A stretch of DNA of 49,149 bases, counting the filler, from Sphacelaria rigidula (Eukaryota): NCBI GenBank assembly GCA_964200075.2. It is 3 parts of 3 records of this genome, joined end to end, with 100 filler letters (N's around TTAATTAATTAA, not from the genome) between each part and the next. Parts side by side here need not be neighbours in the genome. Positions count along the whole stretch, not along the records: positions 16,418 to 32,733 come from CAXNAA020001397.1; 2 more parts are not named here. One strand, written 5' to 3'. Position 1 is the first letter of the stretch. Every line of letters starts with the position of its first letter. The position numbers and the translations under genes are program-made. The notes below the pieces were generated by a model. It was not told where the DNA came from, ran no database searches, and was given only the letters and a program-made list of their open reading frames with translations. This document shows, in pieces, positions 2,755 to 41,900 of this stretch.

Positions 2755-3250
2755 TTAGCGCCGGAGGTGTTCATTTCTGGAATCGGCATTATTTTGACTT
2801 GAAAAGGGCCTGAATATGATACCGATTCCACAAATGAGTACGTCCGACGGATCGGAGGGTTTGTATATTCGCCGTAGGGCAATGCACTCTGTGCCTACGA
2901 AGCCATAGAACACCCTCGCCGCCGGAGTGTTCACCGCATGCCTCCGTCGGGTTACGGTCGGGGTTCGTAAAGTCCAGTTGGGCCAGTCTACCAAAGACCC
3001 AGATGATGTGAAGAGAGGGGATGACGAAATTGAGCCTTTGACCACCGGAGGTGTACATTTCTTGAACGGCTGTATTTTCGTTTGTGGAAATGGCATCATT
3101 TTCACTTGAAAAGTCCTTGGAAATGAGGCCGATTCTAAATATGAACCCCTCCGGCGGTCGAAGGGTTCGGATCGGCGCCGTAGGGCAAAGCATCCTGTGA
3201 CTATGCGATATGCCTTCGTCGGGTTACGGTTGGGGCTAGGGTTAGATTGT
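2755..3250 (+). repeat. Two diverged tandem units of a repeat with a GGCATCATTTTGACTTGAAAA-like motif, ending in a telomere-like GGGCTAGGGTTAG
   Basis: 2760-2965 resembles 3045-3246. The motif occurs at 2785-2805 and 3092-3112 and recurs at 11618-11638. Confidence 0.55.
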
Positions 3251-4985: not shown

Positions 4986-5597
4986 TAGTAGTAGGCGCCT
5001 AAACTGTTCATTTTGTAATTTCTTCGTCATTGGCGATTTTCTTAGCTCTTTCGCTTGCCACCGCTTTTCACATTGAGGATCTGAAGATACTTGTATCCGC
5101 TCCACATTCCCAGAAAAACAATCATCTGTACTCAATATTGGGCGACTTGCGGGCTGACCGGTCCTCGGGGGTCCTGCCACTTTTCAGCCTAGATTCTAGT
5201 TTCAGTTTCGTTTTTCTTGGGAACGTCCATCATGAGACCACGGCTGGACCCCTGGGGGGTCAGTTAAAGTGCGACAATCAATCAATCAATCATGCCAACT
5301 CTTCGGTATTTACGGTCGATCGAGCCTATCCCGATTGTATTTGTGAAGAAATGTACTGGCTTATTCTCTTGAAATTCCACCTACTCTTTGCACTAGAGCC
5401 GAATAACTGTATTTCAAGGTCAATAAAACCCTCCTGATAAACGGGGTATCTACTCCCATCACCCGATAACACCAACTAGCACTAACTTGGGCACTGTGTT
5501 TTGAGGGCGATCTGCTTATTTCACCAAAATCTACCGACGCTAGCACTTTCGAGAAAAACCCCAAAACAACCCTGAACACTCCAGGCGCCCAGCACTG
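4986..5597. mobile_element. Tc1/mariner-like MITE, copy 1
   Basis: Colinear with 9231-9783. It has degenerate TIRs (tagtagtaggcgcct … aggcgcccagcactg) followed by TA. Confidence 0.6.
5197..5297 (+). mobile_element. 5'-truncated non-LTR retroelement 3' end with a (CAAT)n tail
   Basis: Absent from the sister MITE copy at 9231-9783. 5223-5292 is nearly identical to 18763-18827 (catgagaccacggctggacccctggggg…gtgcgacaa-caatcaatca). Confidence 0.6.
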
Positions 5598-9538: not shown

Positions 9539-11026
9539 TATACCTACCCATTGCACAAGAGTCGAAAAACTGTGTTTCACGGTCAATAACACCCTCCTGA
9601 TAAACGGGGTATCTACTCGTATCGCCCGATAACACTAAGTAACACTAACTTGGGCACTATGTCTTGTGGACGATCTGTTTATTTTACCAAAATCTGTAGA
9701 CGCTAGCACTTTCCAGTTCTATCCAAGTGTAGTACGCGAGAAATTCCTAAAACAATCCGGAATAATTCTGATGCTGACAACCATATGAAAGCTGCATGCG
9801 CTACGCATGTTTGCCCTGGATGAGCTACCAACCGGTAGCTCATCAGCTCAGATTATTCCTGGGTGAGCTATGAGTGCTGCGTGAGCTATGAGAGCTGCAT
9901 GAACTACGCATTTTTGCCCTAGATGAGCTATGCGAGATGCATGAGCGGCGCATGTTTGCCCTGGATGAGCTATGAGAGATGCATGAGCTACGCATGTTTG
10001 CCCTGGATGAGCTATGGAAGCTACATGAGCTACGCATGTCTGCCCTGCTGGAGCTCAAGAGCTGCGGGAGCTCAGGAGTTGTTTCTGTTCCGATGTTCAT
10101 GCACATTGATATTGTACGTACGTGACGACGGTTAGATGTGCACACCTGTGTTCCATTTCGTGTAGCGATGGATTTGCTTCTTGTGAACACCAGCATGGCT
10201 GCATCAGAAGTCATCCGCATCATAGCCACCACACACACACACACAACCACAGACGCACACACAACCACATATACACACAATTCGCCCTGCATGGCGACCG
10301 CGGGGGGCAGCAGCTCTAGCGGCGCTTCAGTCGGAAATGATGCCGTGGATCTGGATCCTTCGCAACAGGCGATCAACGTGGAGGAAAATGTGATCGCACT
10401 TTCTTTGGTGTAGCGATGGCTGGGCTCATCCGCTCATGTTTTCCACACGTGAGTTATGAGAGCTGCGTGAGCTACACATGTTTGCCGTGAGTGAGCTATC
10501 GAGCATAGCTCATCCGCGTATGTTTTCCCTGGGTGAGCTACGAGAGATGCATGAACTATACATGTTTGCCCTGGATGAGCTATGAGAGATGCATGAGCTA
10601 CACATATTTGCCCTGGATGAGCTATGACAGCTGCATGAACTACACATGTTTACCCTGCGTGAGCTACCAACCCGTAGCTCATCAGCTCATATTCGCCCGG
10701 GGCGAGCTATGGGAGCTGTATGAGCTACACACGTTTGCCATAGGTGAGCTAACAACCCGTAGCTCATCAGCTCATAGCCATCCTGGGTGAGCTATGAGAG
10801 CTGCATGAGCTACGCATGTTTGCCCTGGATGAGCTACCAACCCGTAGCTCATCAGCTATGAGAGCTGCACAAGCTACGCGTGTTTGTCCTTGGTGAGCTA
10901 CCAACTCGTAGCTCATCAGCTCATATCGTCGTGGGTGAGCTATCGGACGTAGCTCACATGTATATGTTTGATTACGAGTGAGCTACGGCCCGCAGATGAG
11001 CTAGCTCATGAGCTGTCCTACGTGTG
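9000..11026. repeat. GAGCT-rich tandem array (~42-bp unit gagctatgagagctgcatgagctacgcatgtttgccctggat), interrupted twice, ending in a transposon TIR
   Basis: Blocks lie at ~9000-9230, 9786-10075 and 10420-11026. The terminal agctcatgagctgtcctacgtgtg matches the TIR of the element at 43961-44227. Confidence 0.8.
9231..9783. mobile_element. Tc1/mariner-like MITE, copy 2, inserted at a TA site of the satellite
   Basis: Homologous to 4986-5597. Removing it approximately restores the satellite unit gggtgagc-ta-tga(g/a)agctgcatg. Confidence 0.65.
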
Positions 11027-12656: not shown

Positions 12657-13003
12657 GACACTCTCTACGATAGCCCCCCCCCCAAAAAAAACAGCCCAAA
12701 AGTGTCACGAAAAAAATGGTCATACAGCGCCTGATATTTGGGCTCAGGCTGCATGAAGCGCCTCATGTGGGCGACATTGGCGAGAACAAACCCAAGCGTG
12801 GGAATTTCCAGCTGCTCGTTGTGCTCGGCTTTTCCATTTCGATTTACGTAAAGATTTTGCCTCCCTAAACCAGGCACTTTTTTTTCTTTTTTCTGGGGGG
12901 GCGTACTAATTTGTTGCTTGCCTTAGTCGTTTGACCATTGACCACGCACCCCTTTCGAGACGGGAGCATTTTTCGGGGGGGGGGGGCTATCGTAAAAAGT
13001 GTC
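12657..13003. mobile_element. MITE family A (TIR GACACTTTCTACGATAGCC), 4-bp TSD AATG
   Basis: TIRs gacactctctacgatagcccc / ggggctatcgtaaaaagtgtc. AATG occurs at 12653-12656 and 13004-13007. The interior is homologous to 29028-29273 and 34458-34711. Confidence 0.85.
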
Positions 13004-16317: not shown

Positions 16318-16417
16318 NNNNNNNNNNNNNNNNNNNNNNNNNNNNNNNNNNNNNNNNNNNNTTAATTAATTAANNNNNNNNNNNNNNNNNNNNNNNNNNN
16401 NNNNNNNNNNNNNNNNN
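16318..16417. other. Assembly gap with artificial six-frame-stop spacer
   Basis: 100 nt: N44-TTAATTAATTAA-N44. Confidence 0.95.
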
Positions 16418-17550: not shown

Positions 17551-18762
17551 CAGTGAATCCAAAAAAATGGGGTTGATACAAAATATGGGGTTGAAGTGGC
17601 ATTTCTCTTTTGCAGGGGAGACACGAAACACTAGCGATCTAGCGAAGCCATCTTCCCCCCCAAATGTCCGNNNNNNNNNNAGCAGTTGAGCAGCTGTGGC
17701 TAGGTGCACCTGAAGAATGCAGTGTACAGGCGTGTCGATGACGACATCACCAGAGAGAGAAGCAACGACAGAGAGGAAGCTCCTCGCCCGAGTCCTTTGT
17801 GTGTCCCCGCTCGGCGATAACCAAACTCTCGAGAGACTGGCATCATCGATCTTACCAGCATGTGCCCAGTTTTCCATGTCCCGAAACACCAAGCTGCGGA
17901 GAGATTCCGTCGTCTTTTCATGCCTTTCGAGCTCACGAATGCGAAGATCGATTTTTCTCTGCCTCTCCTCTTGGACAGGACGCGCCTCTGTGCGCTGAAA
18001 AACATGTCGTTGAAAAAATAGGGCAATGTTCCCGTCACCGCTACTACTGTCACACACATGCCAGGAAGGGCGGTGCTGCGGCAATAATAGATATATCCAA
18101 TTTGAACTTAGGGGGTGTTATTCATCGTTGATTTTCGCCGACCTCTCCCAACGGGGTGGCCGAGCAGAAGGGCGTGCCACACGCCAGTTGAGGGGAGTGT
18201 ATGAGAGATCAAACATTTGTAGAAACTTTTTTGACATGCGGAGTGAAAAAAGATACCTCTGGTGGTCATCTCACTGTTGCTAACGTGGCGCATAGACAAT
18301 GTGCAGCGCGCTGGTCACGTGGACAGCTCGGTACAGTACGAGTACAGTAGTAGCTTCCCCAAAGTAACAATTATTCTGATGTCAGGAGGACGTGGTCACG
18401 TTAACCAATTGCATGGAAGTCGCGAGACCTGTGAAAGCTAGAGAGTTTGGTTTTATGATCTGCACCCACAAAATTGGAACGGTTCTGAAAACCTGAAGGA
18501 AGGTGGCCGCTTCGGGTCCAGTCAAACATCCGAAGAAACTATCGAACAGCGATACGAAACTCTTCCGGGATTGGCATTGGACAGTGCTCGAACAATGGAA
18601 TAGAAATCAACAAGTTACCGTTTGTATTAGAAAACAATGCGCATGGAACGCTTTGCAGCTTCGAATACACAGAGTTTGATGGAAAGAAACCTCTCCGGGC
18701 CCCCATGTGCGTTGTATCCGCCTGTCCAAGTTTTTCCTCGTTCATCGATGCCCGGCTGGGGT
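17551..18762 (+). mobile_element. Diverged, truncated relative of the long-TIR element at 20518-22334
   Basis: Starts cagtgaatccaaaaaaatggggttga (vs cagcggatcctaatttttggggttga). 17690-18290 is colinear with 20645-21235 and 18440-18760 is more weakly similar to 21380-21720. Contains a 10-N gap. Confidence 0.7.
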
Positions 18763-20517: not shown

Positions 20518-22334
20518 CAGCGGATCCTAATTTTTGGGGTTGAACTAAGAAATGAGGTTCAACCCGCAGATTGTTTTCGTTCGTGAAATATCAAACAGTA
20601 ACACAGAAAGGAAGTCCTTCCCCCCAAAAGTCCGCAGGAGGAGTTGGGCAGTTCAAGCTAGGTGCACCCAACGAATGCGGTGTACACGCGTGTCGATGAC
20701 GATACCACCAGAGAGAGGAGCAACGATAGAGAGGAAGCTCCTCGCCCGCGTCCTTTGTGTGTCCTCGCTCGGCGATTACCAATCGCTCGAGAGACTGACA
20801 TCATTCATGTTACCAGAATGTACCAAATGTTCCATGTCGTGCCCAAAGGCCGAGCTGCGGAGAGATTTAGTCTCTTCGTCTTGCCCGAGCACTTCACCGA
20901 TGCGAAGATCATTTTTTCTCTGGCTCTCTTTCTGAACAGCACGCGCCTCTGTGCGCTGAAGAACATGTCTTTCGAAAACAGGGCAATATTCCCGTCACCG
21001 CTACTACTGTTCTCTGTCACACACATGTCCGCAAGCACGGTGCTGCGGCAAAACCCCACAGATCCAATATGAACTTAGGGGGGTGTTATTCATCGTCGAG
21101 GTCCGCCACGCCCCAACCGGGCGCTTGACCGCACGCCAGATGGGAGGAGTGCACGAGAGATCAAACACTTGTGAAGACGTTCTTGACATGCAGAGTGAAA
21201 AACGATACCTATGATGGTGACCTAACTGTTGCTGGCATCGTGCAGAGGGGTGCGTCAGCTGCGATCTTGAGCTTTCGTTCATCTACTCTACTGACTGCCT
21301 GCCGCCTGCAGAGCGTCAAGCTATAGAGGTCACACTGGGTAGTGTAACATGTTATTATGTACCCGAATTCAGAGCACCTTTGGAAACGAAAGAGTTCATT
21401 TTTTCAAAGTACGTCGACATGGTTGAAATGACTCTCCTTAACCCAGGGAAAGTGCCCGCTTTGGGTCCGTTCAAACGTTCGAAGATAGTGTCGAACAGCA
21501 CTATGAATCTTTCCTGGCATTTTCATTTGCCGATCAGTACAGTACCATCACAAATCGACAATTTAACGTCCTTATTAGACACTAACGGGCATCAAACTGT
21601 TTGTAGGTAAAAAGACGGGCATTTTCATAAACGAGAAGCTCTATGTTCCCCCGTGGGCGTTGTATGCCGTCTCGAAAACTATGCCGTCCTTCTTCCAAAC
21701 TTGGCGGGCGGACGGGGAAGCCGCAGTTCCAAAGTGTTGGGGCGTGGCGGACCTCGACGATGAATAACACCCCCTAAGTTCATATTGAATCTGTGGGGTT
21801 TTGCCGCAGCGCCGTGCTTGCGGGCATGTGTGTGACAGAGAACAGTAGTAGCGGTGACGGGAATATTGCCCTGTTTTTGAAAGACATGTTTTCCAGCGCA
21901 CAGAGGCGCGTGCTGTTCAGAAAGAGAGCCAGAGAGAAAATGATCTTGGCATCGGTGAAGTGCTCGGGCAAGACGAATAGACGAAATTTCTCCGCAGCTC
22001 GGCCTTTGGGCACGACATGGAAAATTGGGTACATTCTGGTAACATGAATGATGTCAGTCTCTCGAGCGATTGGTAATCGCCGAGCGAGGACACACAAAGG
22101 ACGCGGGCGAGGAGCTTCCCCTCTGTCGTTGCTCCTCTCTCTGGTGGTATCGTCATCGACACGCGTGTACACCGCATTCGTTGGGTGCACCTAGCCCGAA
22201 CTGCCCAACTCCTCCTGCGGAGTTTTGGGGGGAAGGACTTCCTTTCTGTGTTACTGTTTGGTATTTCACGAACGAAAACAATCTGCGGGTTGAACCTCAT
22301 TTCTTAGTTCAACCCCAAAAATTAGGATCCGCTG
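20518..22334. mobile_element. 1.8-kb non-autonomous element with ~600-bp terminal inverted repeats
   Basis: 20518-21117 and 21736-22334 are highly similar reverse complements (CAGCGGATCCTAATTTTTGGGGTTGAAC…). The spacer is ~620 bp. No TSD was found. Confidence 0.9.
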
Positions 22335-23065
22335 CTCTGTGTACAAGGCACCAACGTCATATGCTTCGAGTCAAGTGTCGATTAGCAAACACAGTCGAAC
22401 CCACCCATACGCGTTGGGGCACAGAAATGATAAATCAACGAAACATCGGTAAGGTGTCTGTTGTATATTCCCCTCTTTGCTTGACTTCCATTTGCACAAA
22501 CTTTGGGCTGCTATAGCGCCTCACCCACGCGCCATCACATCGTTTCTACGCCGTCGTCGGTCGTCCTCCTCTTCGCAAAGCCGACCTCAGTGAACCCCTT
22601 CCGAGTAGATTAGCCCGAGAAACGCCCACAACCAAGAGGAGCCCGGGAGGGGAGGGCTAAAAGGCGGGTACAAGATTCTCACACAGAACGCACCTTTGAA
22701 TGGATACGCATGCATGCATTCTAGACCGCGTCCTACCCTGTATATATTACAGAAAACTCGGGTTCTATGTATCATCCCGACCTCTTGCACTTCCCGCAAC
22801 TGGGCCCGGTCTTGATACCCCCACATGATCCCTTTATCACACGCAACGACGCACACACATGCTCAGCCTACTGCCCTCCCTCTACAGTACATCTATATTT
22901 CTCCCATCGGAATGATTCCCACGATTCTGTATGGCGCGCGCACACCACCAAACAATGGGGTGGGCAACAGCAGGGTAGATAACACGCTATTGGGTCGCTA
23001 CTGGCACAAAGAGCATGCAATACATGTCTACTCCAATACCCGACAAGATCGGCTGTCGTGGATTC

Positions 23066-26000
23066 CTAACCGACGGGGTCAGTGGACTTCTCGTTGATTC
23101 TTTCCAAGGTTTGCTCTTTGAGGAGCTCGATGGCTTCAGGTCTGAGAAGAGGCTGGTCGGGCGCGACGAAGCCCTGTTCGCCTGCTACGACGGCATTCTC
23201 TTGTTCGGCCTCGATGCCGTCCATGGCTGCCTTTTCTTGTTCCTCCACCGGAACCGGTACCGCGTCTCCAGCTGCCGCTGCCGTGAGCGGGGGAAGGTCG
23301 CTGAAATGGTTACGAGGTAAGAGGGCGGGCGCGCGCGGGGGGAAAAGGTGGGGTGGTGGGGGTAAGGGGGGGGAAAGGTAGTCATGATCATGCATGTCAT
23401 AAGTCATCTGACCATTGACCTCGCATCCCTACATAGCCGGGACGGAGCACGCCGGGATTTTGCCGGACAGGTTCGCACTCAATCACCAAGCGCGACGCGC
23501 CGTGGGTGTATGTAAAGTCGCACGAAGGATGGGCTATTCGGCTCGAAGCCTGCTGACCATTTTGCGTCTGGATGACAGCCAACAATGAGTTGCTTTATTT
23601 TCTGGTATCGCCACTTCCAGAGACAGCCACGGCTTACACACGGCCTCATGGGTGTCTCACCGTTAAAACGCATGAAGGGTGAGCTGCATCCTGCCAACAT
23701 TGTTCGGCCCGGGGCCTACTGAATATCTTGCATTTGGATGCCAGCCTACGACGAGTCGCTTTATTTTGTGATATGGCCACTTTCAGGGACAACCACGGCT
23801 TATACACTGCCTCATGGGTGTCTCGCCATGTAAACACTACGTAGTACGACATTCCATCGTGCGGAGTTGAGGTTCTTCCACGCCGCACAACGTGATTTAG
23901 CTCGACTACCATCATGGGTACTGCAAACAAAACGCAAGCGCGCAAAGTGAATCGGTAACCTGGTTGCCGAGCTTACGCAGTGAATGAGGTGTTTTACAGC
24001 GCCATCGTCAACCGACAGCTACCCCATCGGGGGTCCGTCCCTACAAAGCCGGGACGGAGCACGCCGGGTTTTCTCTGGACCGGGCTGTGTGGCGGGGGGG
24101 GGGGGGGGGCGGAAACGCCTAGTGAGGCTTTCGGATTGCACACGCGAGGATGAAGTTCCAACAAATGAGGGGAGGTTAGGTGGGATAGGGCTAAAGTTGG
24201 TATGCTTGGGGAAAGGAAGCACGTTGTACACAAAAACAATTCCCCCATTTAGTATTGTCGGAACAATACGGAGCAGAACACCGTTCTTCGAGGGAGTGTC
24301 TCTGACCGTACACAATGGCAATGATGATCGGTTTGGTATCAAAGAGCGGAGGCGAGGTCTCTACGCTTGTAGGCCCCCCGACGGCTTGTGAGCCCGTGAC
24401 TCGTTCAGAGTCGGTCGAGAGATATATCTTTCCGAAACTGATGTCGAGTACTCGAAACCCTAGATTCCCGGGGTTCATCAATTGAAACCAGTGACGAGTG
24501 GTGGTAACCGAAAGAACTGAAAAACCACTTTCAATCGAAGAAAATGTTTCGGCAAAGCTATCGCGCTGTGCACGAGGCACCGATATTTGTGAATAGACAC
24601 AACACGATTTCCTTCAATCGGTGAGGACAGGGGACATTTCGCGTGGATGCACACGATGGGGCGATAATGATCATCGACGAAAAACACTGGCAGTGCTTAT
24701 TGCGCCTACACATAACCCCCCGAGTAGTGATATTCTGGAATCGTACATGAGGTAGTCAAACTCGCCCCGCAACACATGTCCAATGTGGTAGCTGTTGCCC
24801 GTCAGAAATACAATGATGTGTACCCCATGACTTAGGTCGCCCCCACGCACATCCTCTCGACTCCTCGCGGCCACGCCATACTCCTCATCGAGACCGAAAA
24901 CTTAGGTTGTGAGTTGATGTAGTACGCTTCCTCCTGTAGAAACCCAGCTACAGGTGGTTGACGTACCTCAGGGTAGGTTTGGGCGCAGGTGAGGGCGGTG
25001 TTCCAGTGGTGAAATAGTAGGTAGTGTCCGAGCCGTACGTTTCCTGGCGGTAAGGGGTCAAGCTCCCCAGGGAGACCTGCGGGCACATGAATGTTTGTTT
25101 GTGGGAGTTAATTGTCACGATCTCCTAGGGCAGGAATGTGTAGAGTTAGTCAACGTAGTAGAGCGTGCATTTTTGCAAGAATGTACTTCTCACGACACAA
25201 CCGTAATTGGTTCTTTCGATGAAATAGATCATACCAGGAACACACGTAGAAAACAAGTAGACTCACGCTGGCAGCATCGGCCGTGGGCACAGTGACGGGG
25301 ATTACACCCGCGCCGCCGGTAGAATCCAGACTCATGCCCAGGACAGCACCGGTAGCGACATCCTTCGTAGCCGTAACGATAGGACTGTCAGCATCCAACG
25401 CTTCGTGCTCTTGGAAGTTCACGCACAGGTCGTCGAACTTGACGGACTGCACATTTAGTGATACCGGGAAAGTGAGTTCAGATTGGTGCTTCGGGCGGTG
25501 GACGATAGAGCACTTCACGTTCATTGTGCCGATTGTCTCAGGTACCACTATGTTACCTCGATGAAAATTGAGACTACCAAATAAGTTATACTAGAATCGC
25601 GTACGAGCGAGTGCGTTTTTGACGGCGATAGATCTCACGAGCCGCGAAGGACGATTGAAAGATTTGCACATCCATTACTCACTTTCGCTAGTGCACTCCC
25701 GACTCGAAATACTAAAACGGCCACTTCGGGATGTCGGGAAATAGGCCATACCTTGACAGGGAAGGTGACGAAGCTCGACAGGGTGGCCATGACATCCACG
25801 TACCACTTCTCCAGAGAAGACATGCCGCCCAGGTCCGCAGTTGGGATGATGTTGGCCTGGTGGAACATGTACTTGTCCCTGGTTTTGGCGAGAGTACGAA
25901 ATTGTGTAGAATGAGGGGAGCGGAGCAAGCGGCGCGTCCACATCATCCTCGCGGGGAGGCGAAGTGTCGTGACTACTAGGAACAAATGTCGTCGGAGTGG

Positions 26001-29000
26001 AGCAAACAGTATCTGAACCGTATACCCTGACATACCTGCGGCCCATGAGCATGTAGCGCGTAGTGGTCTCAGCCTCGGCCTTGTAAATGGCGTCGGTGGA
26101 ACCGAAGGACGCGATGTCATCGTTGCTGTTGCAGCCGTTCACGGAGCCGATGTTCGAGCACGTCTGCTCGAGGATGCGCGATGGGCAACGTCACACCACC
26201 GGGCGAGGGGAGAAGAGACGTCAGGTCACAAACTGAACCCTTTCCAAACTATTGCCAAGAATGCCTTCGATGATCGGGCTGACCTCGTCGACCCGCAGTG
26301 AACACATCCACAGATCAACTTATTTCAAAACACGACCAGAACATTAGCCTCCAAATGGTTCCTCACCCCACGGTCGGGTATGGTGGGGTCCAGCTCCGAG
26401 CAGCCGCAGACGATCCGTCTGATGTATTCGTTTTCATCCACGAGGCACTAAATGTTTTTCGAACAGGATGTAACCCGAATATGAACGACAACGACGACGA
26501 CGACAAAAAAAACATCAGAAAACGACAGGATCAGGATACGCACGACGGCTGATGTGCAGTTTTGTGAGCTCTCGAAGCGAGGAAGTATGCCGGACGTTGA
26601 CCCAGCAGTCGCCCACGATGAGCCGAGTTACCCTGCTGCGGCCGGTGGGGTGGAAATGTCATGACGACACTGGTTGGGTATTGTAGCCTTGATTTAGACC
26701 TTACTCAAGGCTTCTTTACCACACCAGCTATATCTCACCACGTACGCCACCACAGGTCATGAAACCGGCGGCGGGATGATGGTATGCACGGGGTTATTCC
26801 GCCCTTTTCTTATGAGCGCTTACAACGAAAGGGTTTATTCGAGGCAAGCATTTCAAAAAAGGTACATCCATCGAGGTTGGGTTGACTGGAGTTGGTGGAT
26901 CGAACGCGGTTGACTATTGCGGAAAAGAGCGTGACACCGCCTCCTGGGGCCCCCGATATCTGGTAATGATAAATGTATCAGTCATCCTCCGATAGGGGGG
27001 GAGGGTATTTGATTGCACGAAAAAAAGGGCTCATAAATTTGTCAGACGACCTGCCACAGTCGCGGTACGCTTGTATTCGTTTCAAAACGATGTCAATCGG
27101 CATGAATGAGCGTCACGTATCTATAACAAGCTTGTTCGAGCAATCGTTGCTACTTTTAACGACGATTTGACCTGGAATGTCGTGCAAGAAATGGCCCAAA
27201 ATACCCCCCCTCCCTATCGTAGGATGACTCGTATTAATACCACATTCATGACACCCACTCCATACCCTCTTGGAAAGCCAACTGTACTTCCAGTACCCCA
27301 GACCGGTTCTGGATGACGATACCATATTCCGGTTCAACTCGGCTCAAGCCCACACCCTACCTTGCCGCTGACGCAGTTATAGTAGACGTAGGTAGCGTAA
27401 CGCGGCACGATCTGCATCCCAGCGTGCCCTTGTGTGTAAAGATATCAACATGCGCGGTGGGCAGCATCCGAAGAGGGCACATCAGGTCGATATGATGCAC
27501 AGATTTGTCTCTTTGGTCCAATATATTTCAAAACAGGTTACTCGTCATTGCTCGTCTTCCTGCCCATCCTTCCTCAATAGGGTAAATAGCAGATTTCGCG
27601 GAGCGTTTTTCTATTCCACGCAGCCCGACCTGAAATAAATGGAGGTGGAAGCAAGCAGCCAACTTCATCGTGCTGCACGGTGTTTTGACCACCCTCTAGC
27701 GAATCCTCACCATTTGTGGCCACGGTGGAGTAGATGGAGTGGAACTGGCTGTTCTCGTTGACAAGGCTCACGGCGGTCTGTATGCCATCGTACGTGTTGT
27801 CACCGGGGTAGCAAGTCATGAGGTTGGCTTCACCGGACCTGAGACAGTTGGCGTTGAAGAGACCGGTAATACCCGGGGAAACCATACTGCGCCAGTTGTA
27901 AGTGTCCATGTCGAACATGCCCGAAAACACCGCGATCCGTGCGTTGGCTGCGTTGTGCGGGAGGCGTTGGTGGTTGAGAACAAGATGAACGGGCGGAGCG
28001 AGAACACGTCGAGTGAGGTGGCGAAAGGGAACAGGATGAAAAAAGCATGCTCCAAGGAGACGTTTGAAAGTGGGCAAGAAAAGTCAGCTTCCAATTTGGT
28101 GATGTTAACCCATTTACGTTTCGAAACGGCTTCAATCAAGACGGCTTTGACATAGGTAGATTATGAGCATAGGCAGCGTGAAGGGACGTATCGCGGGTAC
28201 CCTCTGTTTTCAGTACTTTTGGCACTGAGCGTTTCAGGGTACCTCAAGGATTGAAAGCTTTACATATCCGGAGTCGGATCACGCCTTTTTCCTGCTTCGA
28301 TGCGTGCCAACCCCCTTGGGGTACATGCTCGTTCATGGTTAATATTTGTTGCTGCTTTCCGTGGCCGCACGCACGGGATTGACTCCTCCTGCAATACATT
28401 GGAGAACCGCGCGCTTAGGGCACCACATCGTGGTTCACAACACGTCAGGATCGATGTTTTTCAAACCCTGGTCGGGACAGTCCCTGCAGGGATCACGCCC
28501 CTGACCCTAACACTAACACTAAGTCTCACCCCAACCCCAACCATGGGTATGTTCTTATTCCGACGAGGTCTCTCAATCTCGCGGACCTCCGCCGCATAAC
28601 ACCTCCTCCCCTCCCTCCCTGCAACCCCACACAGCCCCAACGCTCGGCCACTCTGTACAACAGCGCACATACCTCCGTCTTCGGCGTTGCAGTCTGACGC
28701 TTGGAGCTCATCGCGAGAGAGATGTGTGAGGGTGTGACTACCATGGAAGCCATCGTTGGGGTAAGCTAGTACCGCCTGGAGCAGAGCGTCACTGTCCCAT
28801 CCACCGGCGGCCGCCTCGGCCTCCATGAGGGGTACGGTAACGCTCAGGTAGTCCGGGGGAATAACAACGCTCTGTAGGCCTGAAACGTTTGAAGGAGGGG
28901 GGCGGAGTGGAGGGGAGGGGGGAGCAGATTTTGCCTGAAATGTGCCCTCCGATATACGATGACATTCAGCTTGGCAGCACCGTAGAGCCTGGGCGGGCAT

Positions 29001-31421
29001 CGGGCGGGAGTTTCGGAGAGCGGGTGCGACCCTTTCTCTGCAGCCCCCCCAAATAATAGCTGGTTCAGGAAGGCAAAATCTACACGTACATCGAAATGAA
29101 AAAAGTCAAGCACAACAAGCAGCTGCGAATTCCCACGCATGGGGTCGTTTTCGTCGATGTCGCATGTGTGAGGCGTTTCATGCAGCCTGAAACCAAATAC
29201 CAGGCACCAAGTGTCCATTTTGTTAGTGACAGTTTGGGGTTGATTTTGGGGGAAGGTTGTCGCAGGAAGACTCGTGCATCAGGTGGCGAGGCGTTGAGCT
29301 CAAGTATACTCAAGATGCCTCCGTAGCCTACTCGTAATTGCTGAATTGTTTGACGGCAGCGGTTGCACAGATGCATGGACAATGAATTCGAGCACAAGTA
29401 CTCATTCGGTAGACGCAACTCAGAGAAGAACAGAGCATACACGAACGTCAGTCGTCATGCGAGGTGCCAACCCAAGAACTAGTGACGGAATCGAGAATCT
29501 CCCTCAACAGTCGCCCGCCATGGCGTCGCACCAAGGAGTCTGCGTGCATGAAGCAATTCATGGAAGGAGGGCGCGACGCCATCTGTTGATAACACAATGA
29601 AAGAGCGTGAGAGAGGTGCAGAAGTGCGGGGAGATTTCCCTCATAGCAAACAAATCCAAATCTGCAGAACCTCTCCCTCATCGCAAAATCGAACGACGTT
29701 CGCAGGATGAACTCCGAGGAACACGATTGAGCAACCCATACACACATACCGAATAATGTTCGTCACAGTCCGAACTCACCAGGAGGTGTCATCTTTGTCC
29801 CCTTGACCGTGACGATCGTCTCCTCGTACGGAGGTACATACGGAGAACCAACCTGTTCTTCGAAGCACGCGGTCGCACGGGGGCGGGAACTAGGGTAGTG
29901 AGATACATCGTTGTCTTTACGCTAGCGCACTACTGTCGTCGGAGCTGCGGGCGCCGTCAGGGAGGAGAAATTCACATAGCGGCCAGGTTTAGAGCCGCAC
30001 AGTCTCGGTGATGTGAGCTTCACCACCCACGGCACCACGACACACCGGTTGCCTCGTGTCGCACGTTTGATCCACTGCTGCGAGATGCGAACAGATGCCT
30101 GCCGAAATAACCACATGGACAAAGTCGAACGCTTCGCCATAATCCGGCGGAGAGTATGCAAAATCTTACGGGAAGCGAACATCGTTTCGCAGGTACGTCC
30201 GTGAGCCCTTCAATCGTCGCTACGACGGATGTCGTGACTGAGTAGGCTACAAAAGCAATGCCCCTCCCGAACGCCAGCCCCCTTTCCCGCCGCTCCGAGC
30301 CTCAACAGCAACGAAGTTTGAAATAAACGTTATGTAGCACAGCTTGACGTGTCAACTCCACTTCATCAACTTCGACTAGTAATATCCTTCGGACACCCAT
30401 AGTGCATCTGGTAAGAGTGCAAAGTTATGTTCGCCCGAATACCCCATCCCGTCCTCACCGCACCTGCCCCGATTAACGCAACAAACATGATTATACGGTA
30501 AAGCAGCTAGACGGTTTGACTGCATGAACCCCGAGGAGGGACTATACGAAAACAGCAACCACCGAAAAAGACTGGAACACCCGCCAACGCCGGGATACTT
30601 CACTCCAGCTGAATATTTGGGGACTGGCTGCCACATCAATGCGGTTCGCCCCGGTGGCTCAGTTGGTAACCTCGAAACCTCCTGACGGTTGGATCGTGGG
30701 TTTAAATCTCGCACTGATGTGGGATTTTTCCTCACACCGTGTCCAACAGTGGACAGCAAGTCGTGGGTACACACAATTCGACCCAACGGTCGACGAGGGA
30801 AAGGGACTGCTGAACCCCTCTCGCGATAAAAAAAAGGATTGATACTCACCTCCTGTAGGATACCAGCCCCGTTGAAGGCGTACTCCGTAATGATTTGGGA
30901 TGAGTACTGGCTGTTCAAATCATTCTGAACGCTGATCATCTTCTCATAGTCCGCAGCTGAACATCTGTATGCCTGCGTAGTTTAAACCCCGAGTTGCATA
31001 TCCGGCACCACACCAAATGGTGGGGCGGAGAAGGAAGACACGGTGGGGAAGCAGTTGACAATCAGAGATCAGAGATCGAGCTTGAGAAAATATGAGTGGG
31101 TGTATGGTGGTAGGAACAGGCAGGGGTGCAGGCGCGAAGAATTCAAACATAGAGATGTTCTTGATTTGCTCGCTTTGAGTATACTGAAGATCGAGGTTGC
31201 GCACTATAGGATCATATTTCCCCGGAGCTCAGGCCCGTGCTGAAACGTCGAAGGGTTCGAAAGGTGCGACCCAAAATTAAAAGGGAAACAAATATTGTAA
31301 GGGTTCTGGGCGATGAAACTACACTCACCGGACCCTCGTTGAATAAGCCATCGTATTCGAATTCGTGCGTAGCGAGGAACATATCATCAACCGTGGCTCC
31401 CAGGTAGAAACGGCGCTCTCC
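23066..31421 (-). CDS. Agd3-like (carbohydrate esterase family 18-like) polysaccharide de-N-acetylase; 12 exons, 5'-incomplete, 553 aa recovered
   Basis: Exons: 31421-31329, 30972-30850, 29852-29780, 28879-28673, 27947-27711, 27428-27361, 26447-26367, 26163-26036, 25878-25752, 25446-25267, 25076-24967, 23300-23066. All introns are GT-AG, all phases match and there is no internal stop (1662 nt). Motifs in order: GERRFYLGATVDDMFLAT, YRCSAAD…ITEYAFNGAG, FHGSHTLTHL, SPGITGLFN…PGDNT, IVPRYATYVYYNC, TRYMLMGRRDKYMFHQAN, FPVKSVKFDD, IPVTVP, ETYGSD. The order matches the fungal Agd3 esterase and C-terminal domains as I recall them; not database-checked. Confidence 0.85.
26979..27230. mobile_element. 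MITE family B (TIR GAGTCATCCTACGATAGGG), 4-bp TSD GTAT, intronic
   Basis: TIRs cagtcatcctccgataggg / ccctatcgtaggatgactc, with GTAT on both sides. Homologous to 40465-40721. Confidence 0.85.
28390..28602 (-). mobile_element. Telomere-repeat-carrying MITE, older decayed copy, intronic
   Basis: Reverse-orientation homologue of 31676-31910. It has a decayed (CCCTAA)n tract at ~28500-28542 and is flanked by CTCCTCC on both sides. Confidence 0.7.
29028..29273. mobile_element. MITE family A, diverged copy, 4-bp TSD GTGC, intronic
   Basis: The interior is homologous to 34458-34711 (atcgaaatg…gcacaac.agcagctg…atgcagcctgaa). GTGC occurs at 29024-29027 and 29274-29277. Confidence 0.75.
30642..30838 (+). 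mobile_element. tRNA-derived SINE, 3'-truncated copy, intronic
   Basis: A box TGGCTCAGTTGG and decayed B box GGTTTAAATC. The body matches 37081-37418. Confidence 0.75.
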
Positions 31422-31675
31422 CTACCGTCGATGCGAAGCCGGGTGGGGGATAGGTACAGTCAAGATAGAGTGAGCGGGCGGAGAGGCGCAGGGCAAGCGT
31501 GGGAGGTACGGGGAAAGTCAGAGCTCGTAGCATGGGTGAACCCACCATTATATTGTAAGATAATGTAACGATACGAGCTGCAGGTAGTGGGATACTTCAT
31601 GTGTAAATCGTGAACTTCTCTTCTGCACCGTCACACAGCGCCATGTTGAGAACATTACTCTGGAAGGAACCCCAC

Positions 31676-31910
31676 TGTAATACGTGAGAGGACCGCGTGC
31701 TTAGAGGACCGCATCGGAATTTAAACATCCCTATGATTAGGGTTAGGGTTAGGGTTAGGGTTAGGGTTAGGGTTAGGGTTAGGGTTATGGTCAGGGCCGT
31801 GGTACCTCCAGGGACTGACCCGATTGGTTTTGAAAAACGTCGATCCTGAGGTGTTTTGAACTACGTCGCGGTCCTCTAAGCACGCGGTCCTCTCACGCAT
31901 TACAACAGGC
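31676..31910 (+). mobile_element. MITE with 37-bp TIRs enclosing an interstitial (TTAGGG)8 tract
   Basis: TIRs tgtaatacgtgagaggaccgcgtgcttagaggaccgc / gcggtcctctaagcacgcggtcctctcacgcattaca. TTAGGG x8 lies at 31737-31784, followed by 2 degenerate units. Flanks are ACCCCAC / ACCCCAG. Confidence 0.85.
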
Positions 31911-32271
31911 ACCCCAGTGGCCACCCGTGATAAATAAAAATGGGTACATATCTCGCGATCTATAGGTTAACCGTGTCTTGACAAAATGAAGGCGACGACT
32001 TGACAAAGGTGTGTTGAGGGGGTTTTGAACCTTGACCCTTTGACCACGAGGGTGGATCACTTGCTGAACTGGGATCAATTTCACTTGAAACAATTGTGTG
32101 ATCCTGATGGACTCGTGGGTGAAAAAAAGGGTGTGGGATTACTTTCCAGCAGAGAGCCGAGTTGATTGATTGGTATGTTATCTCACATTATTAGCTGATT
32201 GCAACAACCAGCCCGTGGTCGGTTGTATCCTGCTGGTTTGACGACCGAAAATGGTCCTCCAACATTGATTG

Positions 32272-32484
32272 CTTGTTTTGTGTTGTCGTCCTCTTTATTC
32301 TGGACGTCGGTTTAGACCTCATTTCGGTATATGTGGGCGCACTAGCCGGGGTCACACAGGAGAAAAGCCAACACAGGAGTTCTTTCTTTATTATTTTTCA
32401 AGTTCCCAACCTTCCTCATGTGGTGCCTGTCTTTCTTCTTTATCGCGAGTGGCGTTCAGTAGTCCCTTCTTGCCCCCATCGATC
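32272..32484 (-). mobile_element. tRNA-derived SINE family, 5'-truncated copy
   Basis: The reverse complement matches the 3' half and the (ACAAC)-like tail of 37081-37418. Confidence 0.7.
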
Positions 32485-32733
32485 TTTAATATATATATAT
32501 ATATATAGTCTGAACTATGGTGCCGAAAATGACAGCCTGTGAGAGTACCCTTTTTGGTAAACAAACCAGGAGGGTACACCCTTTATTTTGCTAAAATATC
32601 ATCTCTTACCCTTTTTTGTTCACCTATTGACCCTTTTTCGTCAAGTGCGGACAGTACAGCCGGCTCAGCAGAAGATACGCCCAGCAGTCATAACCATAGT
32701 AATTTTCGGTTAAATTACCAGGGATGTGTACGG

Positions 32734-32833
32734 NNNNNNNNNNNNNNNNNNNNNNNNNNNNNNNNNNNNNNNNNNNNTTAATTAATTAANNNNNNNNNNN
32801 NNNNNNNNNNNNNNNNNNNNNNNNNNNNNNNNN
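32734..32833. other. Assembly gap with artificial six-frame-stop spacer
   Basis: 100 nt: N44-TTAATTAATTAA-N44. Confidence 0.95.
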
Positions 32834-34457: not shown

Positions 34458-34711
34458 GACACTTTCTACGGTAGCCGCCGCCCCCAAAATTGGGTAGTTT
34501 GGGGAGGCAAAATCTTCGCGTTAATCGAAATGGAAACAGTCGAGCACAACGAGCAGCTGAAAAATCCCACGCTTGGGTTCATTCTCGCCGATGTCGCCCA
34601 TATGAGGCGCTTTATGCAGCCTGAACCCAAACATCAGGCGCTCTCTCGATGACCACGTTTTTCGTGACACTTTTGGGCTGGTTTTGGTGGGCGGCTATCG
34701 TAGAAAGTGTC
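34458..34711. mobile_element. MITE family A, 4-bp TSD AAAT
   Basis: TIRs gacactttctacggtagccgcc / ggcggctatcgtagaaagtgtc. AAAT occurs at 34454-34457 and 34712-34715. Confidence 0.85.
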
Positions 34712-35950: not shown

Positions 35951-38900
35951 CTAGGATATGTGTTCCTGCCGCAAAGTTCCCTCCAGCTTTGATCCCAGCT
36001 CTCGAACAAGATTCGAAAACATGCCATTTTTATCGCCGAGCAGGTGCGATGGTGTCCCTTCCTCAGCAACACGCCCTGCGTCCATCACAAGCACTCGATT
36101 GCAGGATATTACATCCTCCAATCTATGAGCAATAACAATCACCGCTGCGTTGCTCAGGAAGGATCGAATCAGTCGCTGAATATTGGCGTCCGTGTCATTG
36201 TCCCTGTCGCAACAAGTCGAGCGTCCGGAGGTCCCCAGGAAATGACGTCGTACAAAATGAAATATGAGTCCATGAGTCTCAACTTCGAATTCTCGTTGTA
36301 CCAGACAATGCGACGACGTTCTCATAAAAAGCTTCACCAACTCAAGAGGTGATGCAGTTGCGAGACTTCAAGAGTGCAACCTGAAAATATGGCAACCCAG
36401 TGTACATTCGTTGACAAACGGTATGCGAGTACAGCACTCACACGTTTGCCGTGGCTTCATCGAACACCAAGACTCCGGGTTGGTTCACCATTGCCCTTGA
36501 AATGCACAGTAATTGTCTCTGCCCTGCGCTCCAGTTGCTCCCATGCTCACTGACATGGCTCAGTAGCCCCAGCGGCAGGCCTGCTACAGCACTCTTGAGG
36601 CCCGTCATCTCCAGTATTTCCCACATATGGGCATCAGAACACTGAGAACGAACGACGCAGAATCGAATAAGGGACACAGGGTAGATGCATACATGACATG
36701 GACCCTTGACCGCTGGCGAAACTCGATAGACTCGACGTCCACAAGCTCTAAAAATTCACAACGGGGAGAACTTCTCCTACTGCAAGGGTGGGCGTTTCTG
36801 TGTCTTCCCATGAAAACAGCAACCAATGTGCATGCCAACACGCTTGACATCGTCATCTTGTACTACCATCCCTGAACGGGTCCACCACTCATCGTGTAAA
36901 ACAACATTCAAAAGTGAAGAGCATATGATTCGCCTGAAGCACGTTGTGTGTACATCACACACTCACTACGTGTTTTGGTATATATTCCGCGTTTGTCCGG
37001 CGGATGCAGATGGAAGAAAATGGACCCTGAGCTTGAGAGGGGGATAAGGGGACGTTCAGCTTCCAAAAAGACATATCGCACCGGTCGCCCAGGTGGCTCA
37101 GTTGGTAACCTCAAAACCTTCTGACGGTTGGGTCGTGGGTTCGAATCTCGGGGCGATCTGGGTTTTTTTCTCACACAATGTCGTGCGTACACAAACTTCG
37201 ACCTAATGGTTGACGAGGGAAAGGGACTGCTGAACTCCTCTCACGATAAAAAATAAAGGCAAGCATCGCAGAGGGAAGGAGGAGAAGTAGAACAAAAGAA
37301 GAAAGACAAAATTCCCGTGTTGGCCTTCCTCCTGTGTGACCTCGGCTGGTGTGCCCACATATACGGAAAGGTGAGACCGGTGTCCAGAATAGATGGGACA
37401 ACACAACACAACAACACACCGTGTCAGCTTCTGACGCACCTGTCCTAATGGGTCCACGACGTCACGTACGCTACCAGAGAACACGTGTGAATCCTGAGAG
37501 ATGACAGTCACGCCCGATCGAAGCAATGATAGTGGAATTTCCTTGATGTCTCGTCCGCCAACAAAGATTCGTCCTTGACAACACTCCACAACACGTACGA
37601 GAGCAAGGGCCAATGAGCTCTTGCCAGATCCCGATCGCCCACAGATGCCGACACGCTCGCCACATCTTTAAGAATCAAATGAAAGGGCGTTGAGACTTGG
37701 TGAGTATCCCAACCAGGTCCGCGCAACAGAAATGTGAGAACGTAGTAGCAATGCATTTACCACCAACGTGATGCCGTAGAGAACAACTATACTTACTTCA
37801 AGATACGAGTCCACAGAACGAGCTTTAAAGCTGTGGAGCACGTGTGTTATACGCGAGGCCGGTGGGGCGGCTCGAGGGTGAACTTGGTTGGACAGGAGAG
37901 GGAGGCAATAAAACGTTCAAAAAGTTTACTTCTACCATTTCTTAAACCTTGCGCCAACTCACCTGACGGAAAGGCTCACGCCGTTCAGCACCAGCGGAAG
38001 GTCGGGGCGGTATCTTGCGCACACATCTTGCATCACTATCTCCTTGGGCGACCAGACGTCGGCGACTTGGACGTCGCCTTCTGGAGTCTAAGTGTCCGGA
38101 AAACACCAAGCGAAACGACTGCACTGACATGTGGAACGGCGCGCAAGTCTGCCAACTGATTTACTAAAGGACGAGGAGGCTACGCAATTGGTTAGGCGTA
38201 GCAACAACTTGCGCAACCACACACCTTTCCACTACAGATGTAGTAAACCTACCAGCCTTGGCAATGCGTACGGATCTCCCCACAGCTGTGCACCCGCAAG
38301 ACTGCCGTACTGAGTTTCGAAATCCACAGTGCGAAGATGTTTATGAATTATGCCCATTGCAAAGCGTGCTCAGTTGAGACGTCACCACCGCGAGCAACAC
38401 TCGTAGCCAGCGACGACGCACCTCGTTTTCTTGCTCTTGCTCGAGAGAGATGAACTGCTGCACTCTCTCCACGGAATTGAAGTGGTTTTCCAGTGCTGTC
38501 GAGGAACGCACTCCGAAACTGAGTGTTCTTGTTATCGCTAGCGCGTAGGACAACCCGAGGCCGACCTGGGGGCGATCATGCACCGTCAATAGTCATGTTT
38601 TGTGTGGTGATAGAAGTTCGCACAACACACTGTCCAACAGTGGAAAGCGACTATGCCGTGGGTACACAGAATTCGACGTAATGATCGACGAGGGAAGGGG
38701 ACTACTGAACCCCTCACGCGAAGAAAAAATAAAGGTGAGCACCGCAGAAGGAAGGTGGATAACTAAAACAAAACAAAAAACAGAAGAAAAAAACTTCTGT
38801 GTTTCCTCATGTGTGACCCCGGCCACCCACACATGCCGAAAGGTGTAGACCGGCGTCCAGAATAGATGGGACGACAACACACACAACAGGAGAACACAAA

Positions 38901-41900
38901 TAGCTGCTGTGACATGGATATTTCAGCTGACTTTCTTACTACGCGGGACCCCAGGTAAACATGTGATTGATGTTACCTTCATAACTTCAAGACAAGTGCT
39001 GTGGTCAAGGGAAAGTGATTGAGGGCAAGACAATCTCCCGAAGTATATTGGTGCGAAGGCGTGAAATCAGCAACATATGAACGGTTGTCTATGTATTCGT
39101 GCCACGCTTGCTGTGGTAGCAGTGTCTCGGTATTCTGCGCCATGGAACTCACTATTCCAGGTGATGATCGCCCAACCAGCACGGCCGTTAACGTGGCAAG
39201 GAAGACCACAAGTGCTCCAAGAAAGTCCAGTCGAATGCCCAGCCACCTGTCGAAATGGCGTGGGATATCCCAGTGAGGTCGTTTAACATCCATCTTCAGC
39301 CAGGTCACATGGTGACACGTGAAATCACGCCGTCACTCCAGTTCTTACGTACTGCGGCAAGTCGTGTCACCTGTTTGTGGCATCCCAGGTGAGGCGCGAT
39401 CTTGCATTAGCGTCGATGAGGAAGAAGTTCTTCTCCCTCATCTTGATGGCAATTCCGTAAGCTTGGATACTGAGGAGCCCATCCAGCGTTTCTTGAAAAT
39501 GGGAGTAGATTGGCGACTTTGTCGCGCTGTCGAGGCGCTTGAGCTGAAGCCGGGAATGGGACAATCACGCACTCGCATTAAATTGGGCGTCATTTCGAGT
39601 TCGCGGTTGCAACGACAAACCTTCATGTCGGCACGTCGGAACTGGCACCACGAGGGCACATGTCGGGCACAACTCAATGCACCCGAAAACAGTTCCGCAA
39701 AAAAATGATGATACACTACAGCACTGCGTTCGTTGTCCAAGCGGTCTACCCGCCCCTTTTAAGCTACATAACACGGTGTATAAGGTGTATAAGGTCTGTA
39801 GTGGAGCCAGTGTGATCGGCACTGCACACAGAGCCGTCGCTGTGATCGCTCCAACGATTAGCACTGAAACACGGGGAGCGCTACATACTCCGAGTTGTGA
39901 GCTATTCCAATACATAATGACAAAATGAGATACGCACCTCCTTCGCAGACAAGCGGTACGTCAGCTGAATCCGATGGTACGCAATAGCGATCGGGACAAT
40001 GAAGAAAAAGAAGCAAGGACTGGTCCCCACCACTACTCCGACTGCCCCCAGCAATGCGAGGAACGCGTCCATGAAGGATGCGAGCGCGGTTGGGATGGCC
40101 ATATCGATTGTATCGAAATCCGACGAGAATCTCGAGGTGATGCGCCCGCTCTCCGTCACTTGAAAGAATTGCAACGGTGCGCCCATCACCTGAAAAAATC
40201 ATCCGATTGTTACATCAATCTCAGTTTTGCTCAAGGCATCTCTTGCAGTTAAAATTCGTGCCCGATACAGCCGTGCCATGGAAATACACCCGACGGTACC
40301 AAGGCATCCCAGTGAGAGATGCAGACTCACTCTATGAAGGAGCGATTTGTGCAGCGCCTCACTGCTCCGTAGCCCAAGCCAGCACATCGCAAAAAAGCGG
40401 ACACAATTGATCACCACGACTAGCATGCACACTCCAGCGTACCTGCACGAAAAGGAACACCAAAGAGTCATCCTACGATAGGGGGGGGGGGGGTTGATTG
40501 CACGAAGAAAGAAGCTCACAGGTGTGTCAGACGACTTGCCACACTCGCGGTGCGCTTGTACTTGGTTTAAAGCGGTGTCAAGCAGTACGAATGAGCGTTA
40601 TTTTTCCGGAACAACCTTGTTCGAACAGCAGTTGCTGCTTCCAACGACGATTTGACTGAGAATTTCGTGCAAGCAGTGGCCCGAAATACCCCCCCCCCCT
40701 CCCCCTATCGTAGGATGGCCTCAAAACATGAATGGTGCAAGATAACCGTGTAGCTAGTTGTGTTCAATACGCTACTATAATTCAGCATAGAGAAAAATGC
40801 TCACTGCCCAAAAACATCGAACGAGTTCATGTGCAATGACAAAAGGCGAGTATGCCGGCGTGACAGAAGTAACAGGGCGCAAGAACCACCGGATAGCTGA
40901 AAAATCAGAAAGGTCTCACCAGCACAAATATACCCCAGGTTTTGTGGACGAGCTATCAGACCAGAACGCTAGTACGACCTCCTTCGAAACGTCCATGACC
41001 TGTAGAGTCACGGGGCGTACGCGGGAATGATGCGGGCTTGGTGAAACCTGATAATTGTCCACGGTGAACAGGTGAACAGGTGAACAGGTGAACAGGTGAA
41101 TAGTTGCTGGCTATGCGATGGTTCCACCGGAAAAACCCTCGTCCAGACAATTGTTTTACTCGAACTAGCCGCAGATGTTCATGGTAAGCAGTGACGCCTT
41201 GGATGCGCCAACATTGTCCACCTTATCCCAGACCTCACGAGTGGTGTAATGAACATGTCTGTCGTGATGAAAATCTACCGCCACCACCGACTAGCGTACT
41301 AACCTGAGCAAGTACAGATATAGACAGTGTAACGATCACCACCATTATCCCGCAAGCTTTTAGGTAGCTAAGATAAACGTTGGCCGGAACGCCTTCCTTG
41401 ATCCTGTCGTGGTCGACCTGAGCTGAGAGCTTGAGCATGGATTTCACCTGTCAAACACACGCAGAGGGTTGAAGAGGATAAAAATAACGTGTGAGGGAAA
41501 TCTCACCGGAACTCTGTGCCAATCAATACCGAATCATCCCATAATGAAAGTAGAGCTGCAAATATTCATCAAACGTTCTCCAAGTCACCTCGTCCGGTTT
41601 GGCCTTGTGTACGGGCGGTGTTGACCAAGATTCCACGTCAACGAAATTTGAGCGCGAGCCCGATGCTCCAGCGTCATATCCGGCGTGCTTCTCGAAATTC
41701 TGTGTCGCACAAGCACGTCGAGAAAGCGCATCACAAAGTCCATTGCACAGAGATTTCGAACATCCGCGTCTTATTCGAGTCTTCATAGGGGCACATGGGG
41801 ATGCCCTTGAATGTCTGGGACTCCACAAAAGGATTCAGAGCAATCGACAAGAGATCTCGTATTGCCCATGCTAGCACCCACCCAACCCTGCACGTCAAAA

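Follow-up and report, generated by a model that had tools for sequence, protein, structure and literature searches.

What would a relative of a fungal biofilm deacetylase do in a brown alga? The question is raised by a locus on the minus strand (31421 to 23066) of a 49,149-nucleotide stretch of Sphacelaria rigidula DNA, here called the window, in which a first-pass annotation had seen a hidden, intact gene for an enzyme like Agd3 of Aspergillus fumigatus. The locus is a split gene that is expressed, and its protein belongs to the Agd3-type (CE18-like) family and keeps the catalytic residues of that family. We have fair confidence in the predicted chemistry, that of a secreted metal-dependent deacetylase; secretion, metal dependence and activity are argued from analogy, and so, above all, is the substrate. 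Taken whole, the reading that this is an expressed brown-algal gene for an Agd3-type metal-dependent deacetylase, whose likeliest substrate is the alga's own hexosamine-containing matrix glycan, seems to us about an even chance.

Gene structure and transcription

Eleven exons were located by tblastn with brown-algal homologues, and a more permissive rerun added the twelfth. Scoring GT or GC donors against AG acceptors near the ends of the matches gave, from homology alone, a model of 558 codons with GT-AG introns throughout. This model agrees at nine joints with spliced contigs from two sequencing runs, X6 and X7, described below; its junctions 31323/30972 and 30846/29857 were dropped, as the contigs give 31329/30972 and 30850/29852. 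The corrected model comprises twelve exons and eleven GT-AG introns, and its 1662 nucleotides encode 553 codons plus a stop, with matching intron phases and neither a frameshift nor an internal stop. Matches to the Pfam family Agd3_CE (PF25115) run collinearly through the stop-to-stop frames of 23066-31421. As in the first-pass annotation, the splice sites are canonical, the phases match and the length is 553 residues.

Four public runs were compared with positions 22001-32733. Two of them (X1 and X3) are DNA-like, their depth being even over exons and introns (~135 and ~40), and two from another study (X6 and X7) are RNA-like, with a depth of roughly 500 to 8,000 in bins that hold exons and of 0.2-10.4 in wholly intronic bins. 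The X6 and X7 contigs skip 1666, 190, 305, 157, 203, 913, 282, 725, 900, 997 and 356 nucleotides, and with a single exception the skipped segments are bounded on the plus strand by CT..AC, equivalent to GT..AG on the minus strand. The junctions are borne out exactly in ten of eleven cases. The eleventh, at intron 5, is seen in X6 only and has the right length of 282 nucleotides, placed at 27430/27713, two nucleotides from the canonical GT-AG pair at 27428/27711 and with a one-base difference; a strain difference at the canonical junction may account for this. Among the joints listed for X1 and X3, none of the eleven is present. The locus is spliced and transcribed.

All exons lie on the minus strand. 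Exon 1 of the window part (31329..31421) directly follows an AG acceptor, encodes GERRFYLGATVDDMF... and carries the first catalytic motif, CM1 (D12 and D13). Exon 2 (30850..30972) is bounded by joints 30972/31329 and 29852/30850, both present in X6 and in X7, and exon 3 (29780..29852), detected by tblastn to brown-algal homologues, by 29852/30850 and 28879/29780. The second motif, CM2 (SHTLTH, with H145 and H149), is in exon 4 (28673..28879; joints 28879/29780 and 27947/28673), which is 87% identical to P0002, the nearest annotated orthologue. Exon 5 (27711..27947) scores 144 bits against a brown-algal profile, and exon 6 (27361..27428) encodes CM3 (VPRY, with R254). A Cys-rich stretch makes up exon 7 (26367..26447; joints 26447/27361 in X6 and 26163/26367 in X6 and X7). 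Exon 8 (26036..26163; joint 25878/26036) is 88% identical to P0002, and exon 9 (25752..25878; joint 25446/25752 in X6) holds CM4 (YMFHQAN, with M341 and H343).

The C-terminal beta domain begins in exon 10 (25267..25446), where X6 and X7 each supply one contig joining 24967-25074 to 25265-25429. Exon 11 (24967..25076) has the joints 25076/25267 and 23300/24967. Exon 12 (23066..23300) encodes a tail rich in Pro, Ala and Glu and ends with the stop codon (23066-23068); it is 65% identical to the end of P0002, and contig 25 of X7 covers exons 12, 11 and 10. A probable 3' untranslated region of ~0.9 kb follows on the same strand (22153..23065), covered by an X7 contig at 22153-23137 and an X6 contig at 22329-23137 with a depth of 841-1047. 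The part of the protein encoded in the window comprises the complete catalytic barrel, the C-terminal beta domain and the tail.

The gene shows signs of constraint. The runs differ from the exons at 14 single bases. Thirteen of these differences are at third codon positions and synonymous; the exception, R529G, falls in the low-complexity tail. The first-pass annotation had instead argued for selection from four transposable-element insertions, all of them intronic. The exons are indeed free of repeats, there being four or five repeats in the introns, not strictly four. This argument is weak, because exons make up only 20% of the locus and four insertions would all be intronic by chance with a probability of 0.8^4 = 0.41; the synonymous changes are the stronger evidence of constraint.

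Family membership and catalytic residues

Taken one at a time, four exons match Agd3_CE collinearly: exon 2 at 15.6 bits (profile positions 22-62), exon 5 at 24.3 bits (168-232), exon 6 at 21.9 bits (235-252) and exon 9 at 12.6 bits (292-340). Each is below the cut-off of 27.6 bits, and their rough sum is 74 bits. The spliced protein matches a profile built from brown-algal PF25115 proteins end to end with 707 bits, and the orthologue P0002 and the protein P0001 score 137 and 141 bits against PF25115 itself. BLASTP gives 131 bits to the fungal protein P0053, which has the domains CBM87_Agd3 (PF25116), Agd3_CE and PF25117; fungal proteins with these three domains score 112-131 bits. Assignment to the Agd3/CE18 family, as first proposed, is upheld by these matches.

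All four Agd3 motifs (DD, HxxxH, R and MxH) occur, in the forms given in the first-pass annotation: TVDDMF at position 10, SHTLTH at 144, VPRY at 252 and MFHQAN at 341 of the spliced protein. In an alignment of 52 sequences D12, D13, H145, H149, R254, M341 and H343 fall in near-invariant columns; D12 and D13 align with the near-invariant D298 and D299 of the Pylaiella homologue P0015, and R254 with its R551. According to the Agd3 study (PMC7229062), D377 is the catalytic base, D378, H510 and H514 are the metal ligands, R613 positions the base, H668 is the catalytic acid and M666 is required for activity; the counterparts in the window protein are D12, then D13, H145 and H149, then R254, H343 and M341. 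The same source places the HxxxH motif of Agd3-type enzymes more than 120 residues after CM1, and here 132 residues separate D13 from H145. By analogy with Agd3, D13, H145 and H149 would be the ligands of a divalent metal, R254 would position D12 for the activation of water, and H343 would protonate the leaving amine.

Structural comparison was made through homologues. The Ectocarpus protein P0008 matches the Agd3 crystal chain 6nwz_A with an E-value of 4.9e-23 and with all four motifs aligned (vvDDlfl with qiDDmfl, HhtliH with sHtftH, ivPRf with vnPRw, and ymfHqan with ymfHqan); the YMFHQAN of the window protein is identical to the seven residues of the 6nwz chain. An AlphaFold model of the full-length P0015, which is 57% identical to the window protein, has a predicted local distance difference test score (pLDDT) of 89.6 and a predicted template modelling score (pTM) of 0.89. 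The best Foldseek match of this model is 6nwz_A (E-value 3.8e-41, template modelling (TM) scores 0.71/0.82, 763 alignment columns), so the proposed likeness to Agd3 is seen by proxy. Human NDST1 (E-value 4e-14, TM score ~0.44) and Pseudomonas PelA (E-value 6.5e-07) come second and third through their deacetylase domains, with a much weaker fit than Agd3, and the Pfam domain HSNSD-CE is seen only in a distant relative, P0056, and not in the brown-algal proteins.

Agd3 (CE18 with CBM87; PDB 6NWZ) and the window protein thus share the four motifs, the CM1-CM2 spacing of ~132 residues and, by the proxy of P0015, the fold. They differ in that the segment from CM3 to CM4 is longer in the window protein (89 residues against 55) through an additional Cys-rich insertion, and that this protein is only 27-33% identical to the fungal homologues. 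The gene, unlike that of Agd3, has many introns and, as far as its 16-kb piece shows, stands outside any galactosaminogalactan (GAG) gene cluster.

The missing 5' end

The first-pass annotation called the gene intact, which holds for the twelve exons only. Exon 1 opens straight after the acceptor (CGGTAG|GGC) and offers no start methionine. The motif GERRFYLG at its start is preceded by 98 to 681 residues in 17 homologues, these being all that have the motif and more than 90 residues upstream of it, and every one of them extends upstream of GERRF. This upstream region ends in the pattern ..EELHVF.T.GWFD.G.W.WAH...EW.TKGIFM. A profile of the ~290 residues before GERRF in these 17 proteins was run over all frames of the window without a match, the lowest E-value being 0.87, at exon 1 itself; the upstream region, like a start codon, is absent from the whole window.

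The transcripts supply part of what is missing. Contigs from X6 and X7 extend 81 nucleotides past 31422 with sequence foreign to the window. On the minus strand 30 letters of this run-on read ..VEWATKGVFM, with which the upstream domain of the homologues characteristically ends, and lead into GERRF. No match to these 30 nucleotides was found in the window even when three mismatches were allowed, and therefore a spliced upstream exon exists beyond this piece. Exon 1, as numbered here, is internal to the real gene.

The window consists of pieces of 16317, 16316 and 16316 nucleotides, separated by N44-TTAATTAATTAA-N44 blocks at 16318-16417 and 32734-32833. Their equal sizes suggest that they were cut and joined in the making of the window, so that the sequences flanking a block may not be neighbours in the genome. 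The gene-bearing piece extends for 1.3 kb upstream of exon 1, as far as position 32733, where it meets the second of these blocks. A further run of ten N's is at 17671-17680.

The window thus holds the last (3') twelve exons, and the start codon, a signal peptide and a CBM87-like N-terminal domain would be encoded on exons beyond the end of the piece. Of the three-domain architecture (CBM87, CE and C-terminal beta domain) the CE and C-terminal parts are in the window, and the transcripts carry the ..EWATKGVFM that precedes them. The model of P0015 covers all of 6nwz_A in the structural match, and in the homologue P0016 the Pfam domain CBM87_Agd3 is matched weakly (E-value 0.068).

A multigene family in brown algae

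With a single exon as the query, 20 brown-algal proteins were retrieved, each containing PF25115, the best being two from Sphacelaria rigidula at 72-77% identity. A profile search found 56 proteins, 51 of them from brown algae or close relatives, the named ones belonging to 13 taxa in eight genera: Ectocarpus (several species), Pylaiella, Scytosiphon, Undaria, Hapterophycus, Sphacelaria, Choristocarpus and Discosporangium. By automatic annotation, UniRef already gives two of the Ectocarpus entries the name "Agd3 deacetylase domain-containing protein". To call the gene hidden or novel was therefore an overstatement; the locus is another copy of a multigene family that is seen in every brown alga examined and is uncharacterised. 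The window copy has no identical entry in the protein collection searched. It is of the same family and clade as the brown-algal proteins named for an Agd3 deacetylase or a WSC domain, having 84% identity to P0002 across 468 aligned positions and 45-58% identity to most others. The gene model of P0002 itself (Sphacelaria rigidula, 463 residues) is short, beginning within exon 3 and without the DD motif; probably this gene, too, is incompletely annotated in public data for the species.

In contrast to Agd3, brown-algal paralogues are fused to further domains. In many of them Agd3_CE is joined to WSC or extensin-like domains, and three proteins from other brown algae (P0029, P0032 and P0036) combine it with one or two GH114_assoc domains (PF14741) and have no GH114 catalytic domain. 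The domain scan of P0032 and P0036 gave no other family at E-values up to 0.01; the domains of P0029 are those of a precomputed list.

Beyond the brown algae, a search of 1.84 billion cluster representatives returned 1049 relatives at E-values up to 0.001. Of 20 representatives looked up, the ten with names include chytrids, an ascomycete, a green-algal metagenome-assembled genome and protist transcriptomes. For a quick FastTree analysis, 146 catalytic domains with good coverage of the profile (most of its length) were selected from 202 sequences (201 proteins and the window model); the truncated P0002 was omitted. All 42 brown-algal rows form one clade with a local support of 100 on a stem branch of 1.15; the clade includes Choristocarpus and Discosporangium and has at least four subclades, and its sister group is unresolved in this tree. 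The window protein is in a subclade of 15 rows with the Ectocarpales and the Scytosiphon group, WSC fusions included. The long residence in brown algae that had been proposed from the many introns is borne out by this clade. A narrow test for viral relatives, in which two peptide patterns were sought in viral contigs, yielded nine pattern matches, none of which was confirmed.

Literature searches on Agd3 and CE18 in brown algae and Ectocarpus brought up no relevant paper. The main texts of two large brown-algal CAZyme surveys (PMC11468063 and bioRxiv 10.1101/2024.02.19.579948), in the parts available, mention neither a deacetylase nor CE18.

The likely substrate

In the alga the enzyme would de-N-acetylate a glycan of the extracellular matrix that contains N-acetylgalactosamine (GalNAc) or N-acetylglucosamine (GlcNAc), rendering it cationic and adhesive. 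The three structures nearest to the P0015 model (Agd3, NDST1 and PelA) are all hexosamine N-deacetylases, which favours a hexosamine polymer. GH114 is the family of the endo-alpha-1,4-galactosaminidase Ega3, a hydrolase of galactosamine (GalN) polymers, and according to PMC11468063 and the Phaeoexplorer preprint (bioRxiv 10.1101/2024.02.19.579948) it is amplified in brown algae, with about five genes per genome. The GAG- or Pel-like amino-sugar polymer suggested by the first-pass annotation becomes more plausible because GH114 is amplified and paralogues of the window gene are fused to GH114_assoc; such a polymer is something we infer, not something we observe.

Several points weigh against the reading as a whole, substrate included. 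We know of no GalN/GalNAc polymer from brown algae. The identity of 27-33% to fungal Agd3 homologues such as P0053 is too low for substrate specificity to be transferred, and the length of the brown-algal stem branch counts against a hexosamine substrate. Single exons, or homologues of 57-84% identity, underlie the Pfam, PDB and fold results. The RNA nature of X6 and X7 is a guess, backed by their spliced contigs; no run in the list is on record as RNA. The window has neither the start codon nor the N-terminal domain, which leaves the completeness of the gene unproven. To these must be added that CE4, the sister family, includes O-deacetylases as well as N-deacetylases, and that O-acetylated fucans are an obvious alternative substrate.

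The alternative that survives best keeps the enzyme and its chemistry and changes the bond that is cut. The substrate would be an O-acetylated matrix polysaccharide of the alga, for example an acetylated fucose-containing sulfated polysaccharide, and O-deacetylation would tune the charge and the gel properties of the wall. Many fucoidans carry acetyl groups, and CE4 has among its members acetylxylan esterases that work by the same metal and His/Asp chemistry; the WSC and extensin-like domains of the paralogues are wall-associated, and the stem of 1.15, which sets the brown-algal proteins apart from all others, leaves room for a change of substrate. We nevertheless consider O-deacetylation unlikely, as all three structural neighbours act on N-acetylated hexosamines and the GH114_assoc fusions, together with the amplification of GH114, point to polymers of the GalN type.

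It is less likely still that the enzyme is secreted to act on foreign matrices of the Pel, GAG, poly-N-acetylglucosamine or chitin type, made by epiphytic bacteria or by fungal or oomycete pathogens, in defence or in conditioning of the surface. The family is multicopy and diversified, with its four or more subclades, as may be common for defence-related secreted proteins. Relatives of Agd3 are found in bacterial exopolysaccharide operons (PMC7229062), so such substrates exist on algal surfaces; deacetylation, by the same source, normally matures a polymer and does not destroy it, which speaks against such a role. That the locus is a truncated, non-functional fragment, or the protein a non-catalytic binding protein, is very improbable: the window lacks the start codon and N-terminal domain, and P0002 is likewise a short model without CM1, but transcript contigs run into the conserved upstream exon, every catalytic residue is kept, 553 codons pass without stop or frameshift and 13 of 14 exonic differences are synonymous.

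Repeats and neighbouring sequence

Sequence was counted as repeated where other copies occur in the window or where the word depth in X1 is ~30 to 13,000 times the single-copy level of ~135. On this basis dispersed repeats are present in introns 2, 3, 6 and 11. The repeat in intron 2 (30646..30834) has copies at 37085-37253 and 38625-38729 and an X1 depth of ~954,000; that in intron 3 (29040..29269) has copies at 34474-34707 and 12687-12873; and that in intron 6 (26980..27226) has a copy at 40466-40717 and an X1 depth of ~76,000. The high-copy repeat in intron 11 (23426..24083) has terminal direct repeats of 46 nucleotides and an internal tandem of 166 nucleotides, and its word depth in X1 reaches 1.8 million. 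A further high-depth stretch, bearing a microsatellite, is in intron 4 at ~28445-28672.

Intron 9 contains a decayed copy of exon 9 (25462..25590, minus strand), recognisable as ..FHRGNIVV..TFPV and reading in frame into exon 10. Its protein-level local score of 37 was matched by none of 2000 shuffles. It gives no signal at the DNA level and is not used by any of the RNA joints among those listed; an old duplication of the exon may explain it.

Just downstream of the gene is a 565-nucleotide inverted repeat, the arms of which (20518-21082 and 21770-22334) are 97% complementary and 687 nucleotides apart. The X7 contig at 22153-23137 enters one arm, and related copies are found at 17681-18295. 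Upstream of exon 1, an element resembling a miniature inverted-repeat transposable element (31676-31904) has 50-nucleotide inverted arms (88%) flanking a dinucleotide repeat; the 358-nucleotide bin around it (31667-32024) has a very high word depth in the DNA runs, ~767,000 in X1. The microsatellite-bearing stretch in intron 4 is similar.

As to neighbours of the fungal GAG-cluster kind (glycosyltransferase, UDP-sugar 4-epimerase, GH135 and GH114), the three other open reading frames of at least 160 codons on the 16.3-kb piece of the gene match no Pfam family; GH114 genes are present elsewhere in brown-algal genomes (PMC11468063). On another piece of the window, the reading frame 9843-10433 (minus strand) has a sub-threshold match to the transmembrane region of neurotransmitter-gated ion channels (19 bits, E-value 0.0018). 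A second, decayed copy of the gene at 39.9-43.6 kb, suggested by tblastn (E-values 0.16-4), was rejected on profile E-values of 3 or more.

Implications for the brown-algal matrix

As a single locus the gene is ordinary. The family is noteworthy. Multicopy, expressed and under purifying selection, it retains the full catalytic set of a fungal biofilm deacetylase, and in brown algae it co-occurs with an amplified GH114. A wider proposal is put forward tentatively and with some doubt, that brown algae may make and remodel an undescribed, partly de-N-acetylated matrix or adhesive polymer rich in GalNAc and GalN, similar to GAG or Pel, with a toolkit of multicopy CE18 enzymes (WSC- and GH114_assoc-fused forms among them) and amplified GH114 that would have been inherited from the brown-algal ancestor. 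If the substrate of the Agd3-like enzymes were identified, it would be a new component for the model of the brown-algal extracellular matrix, one that might matter for adhesion and for how the alga interacts with microbes on its surface.

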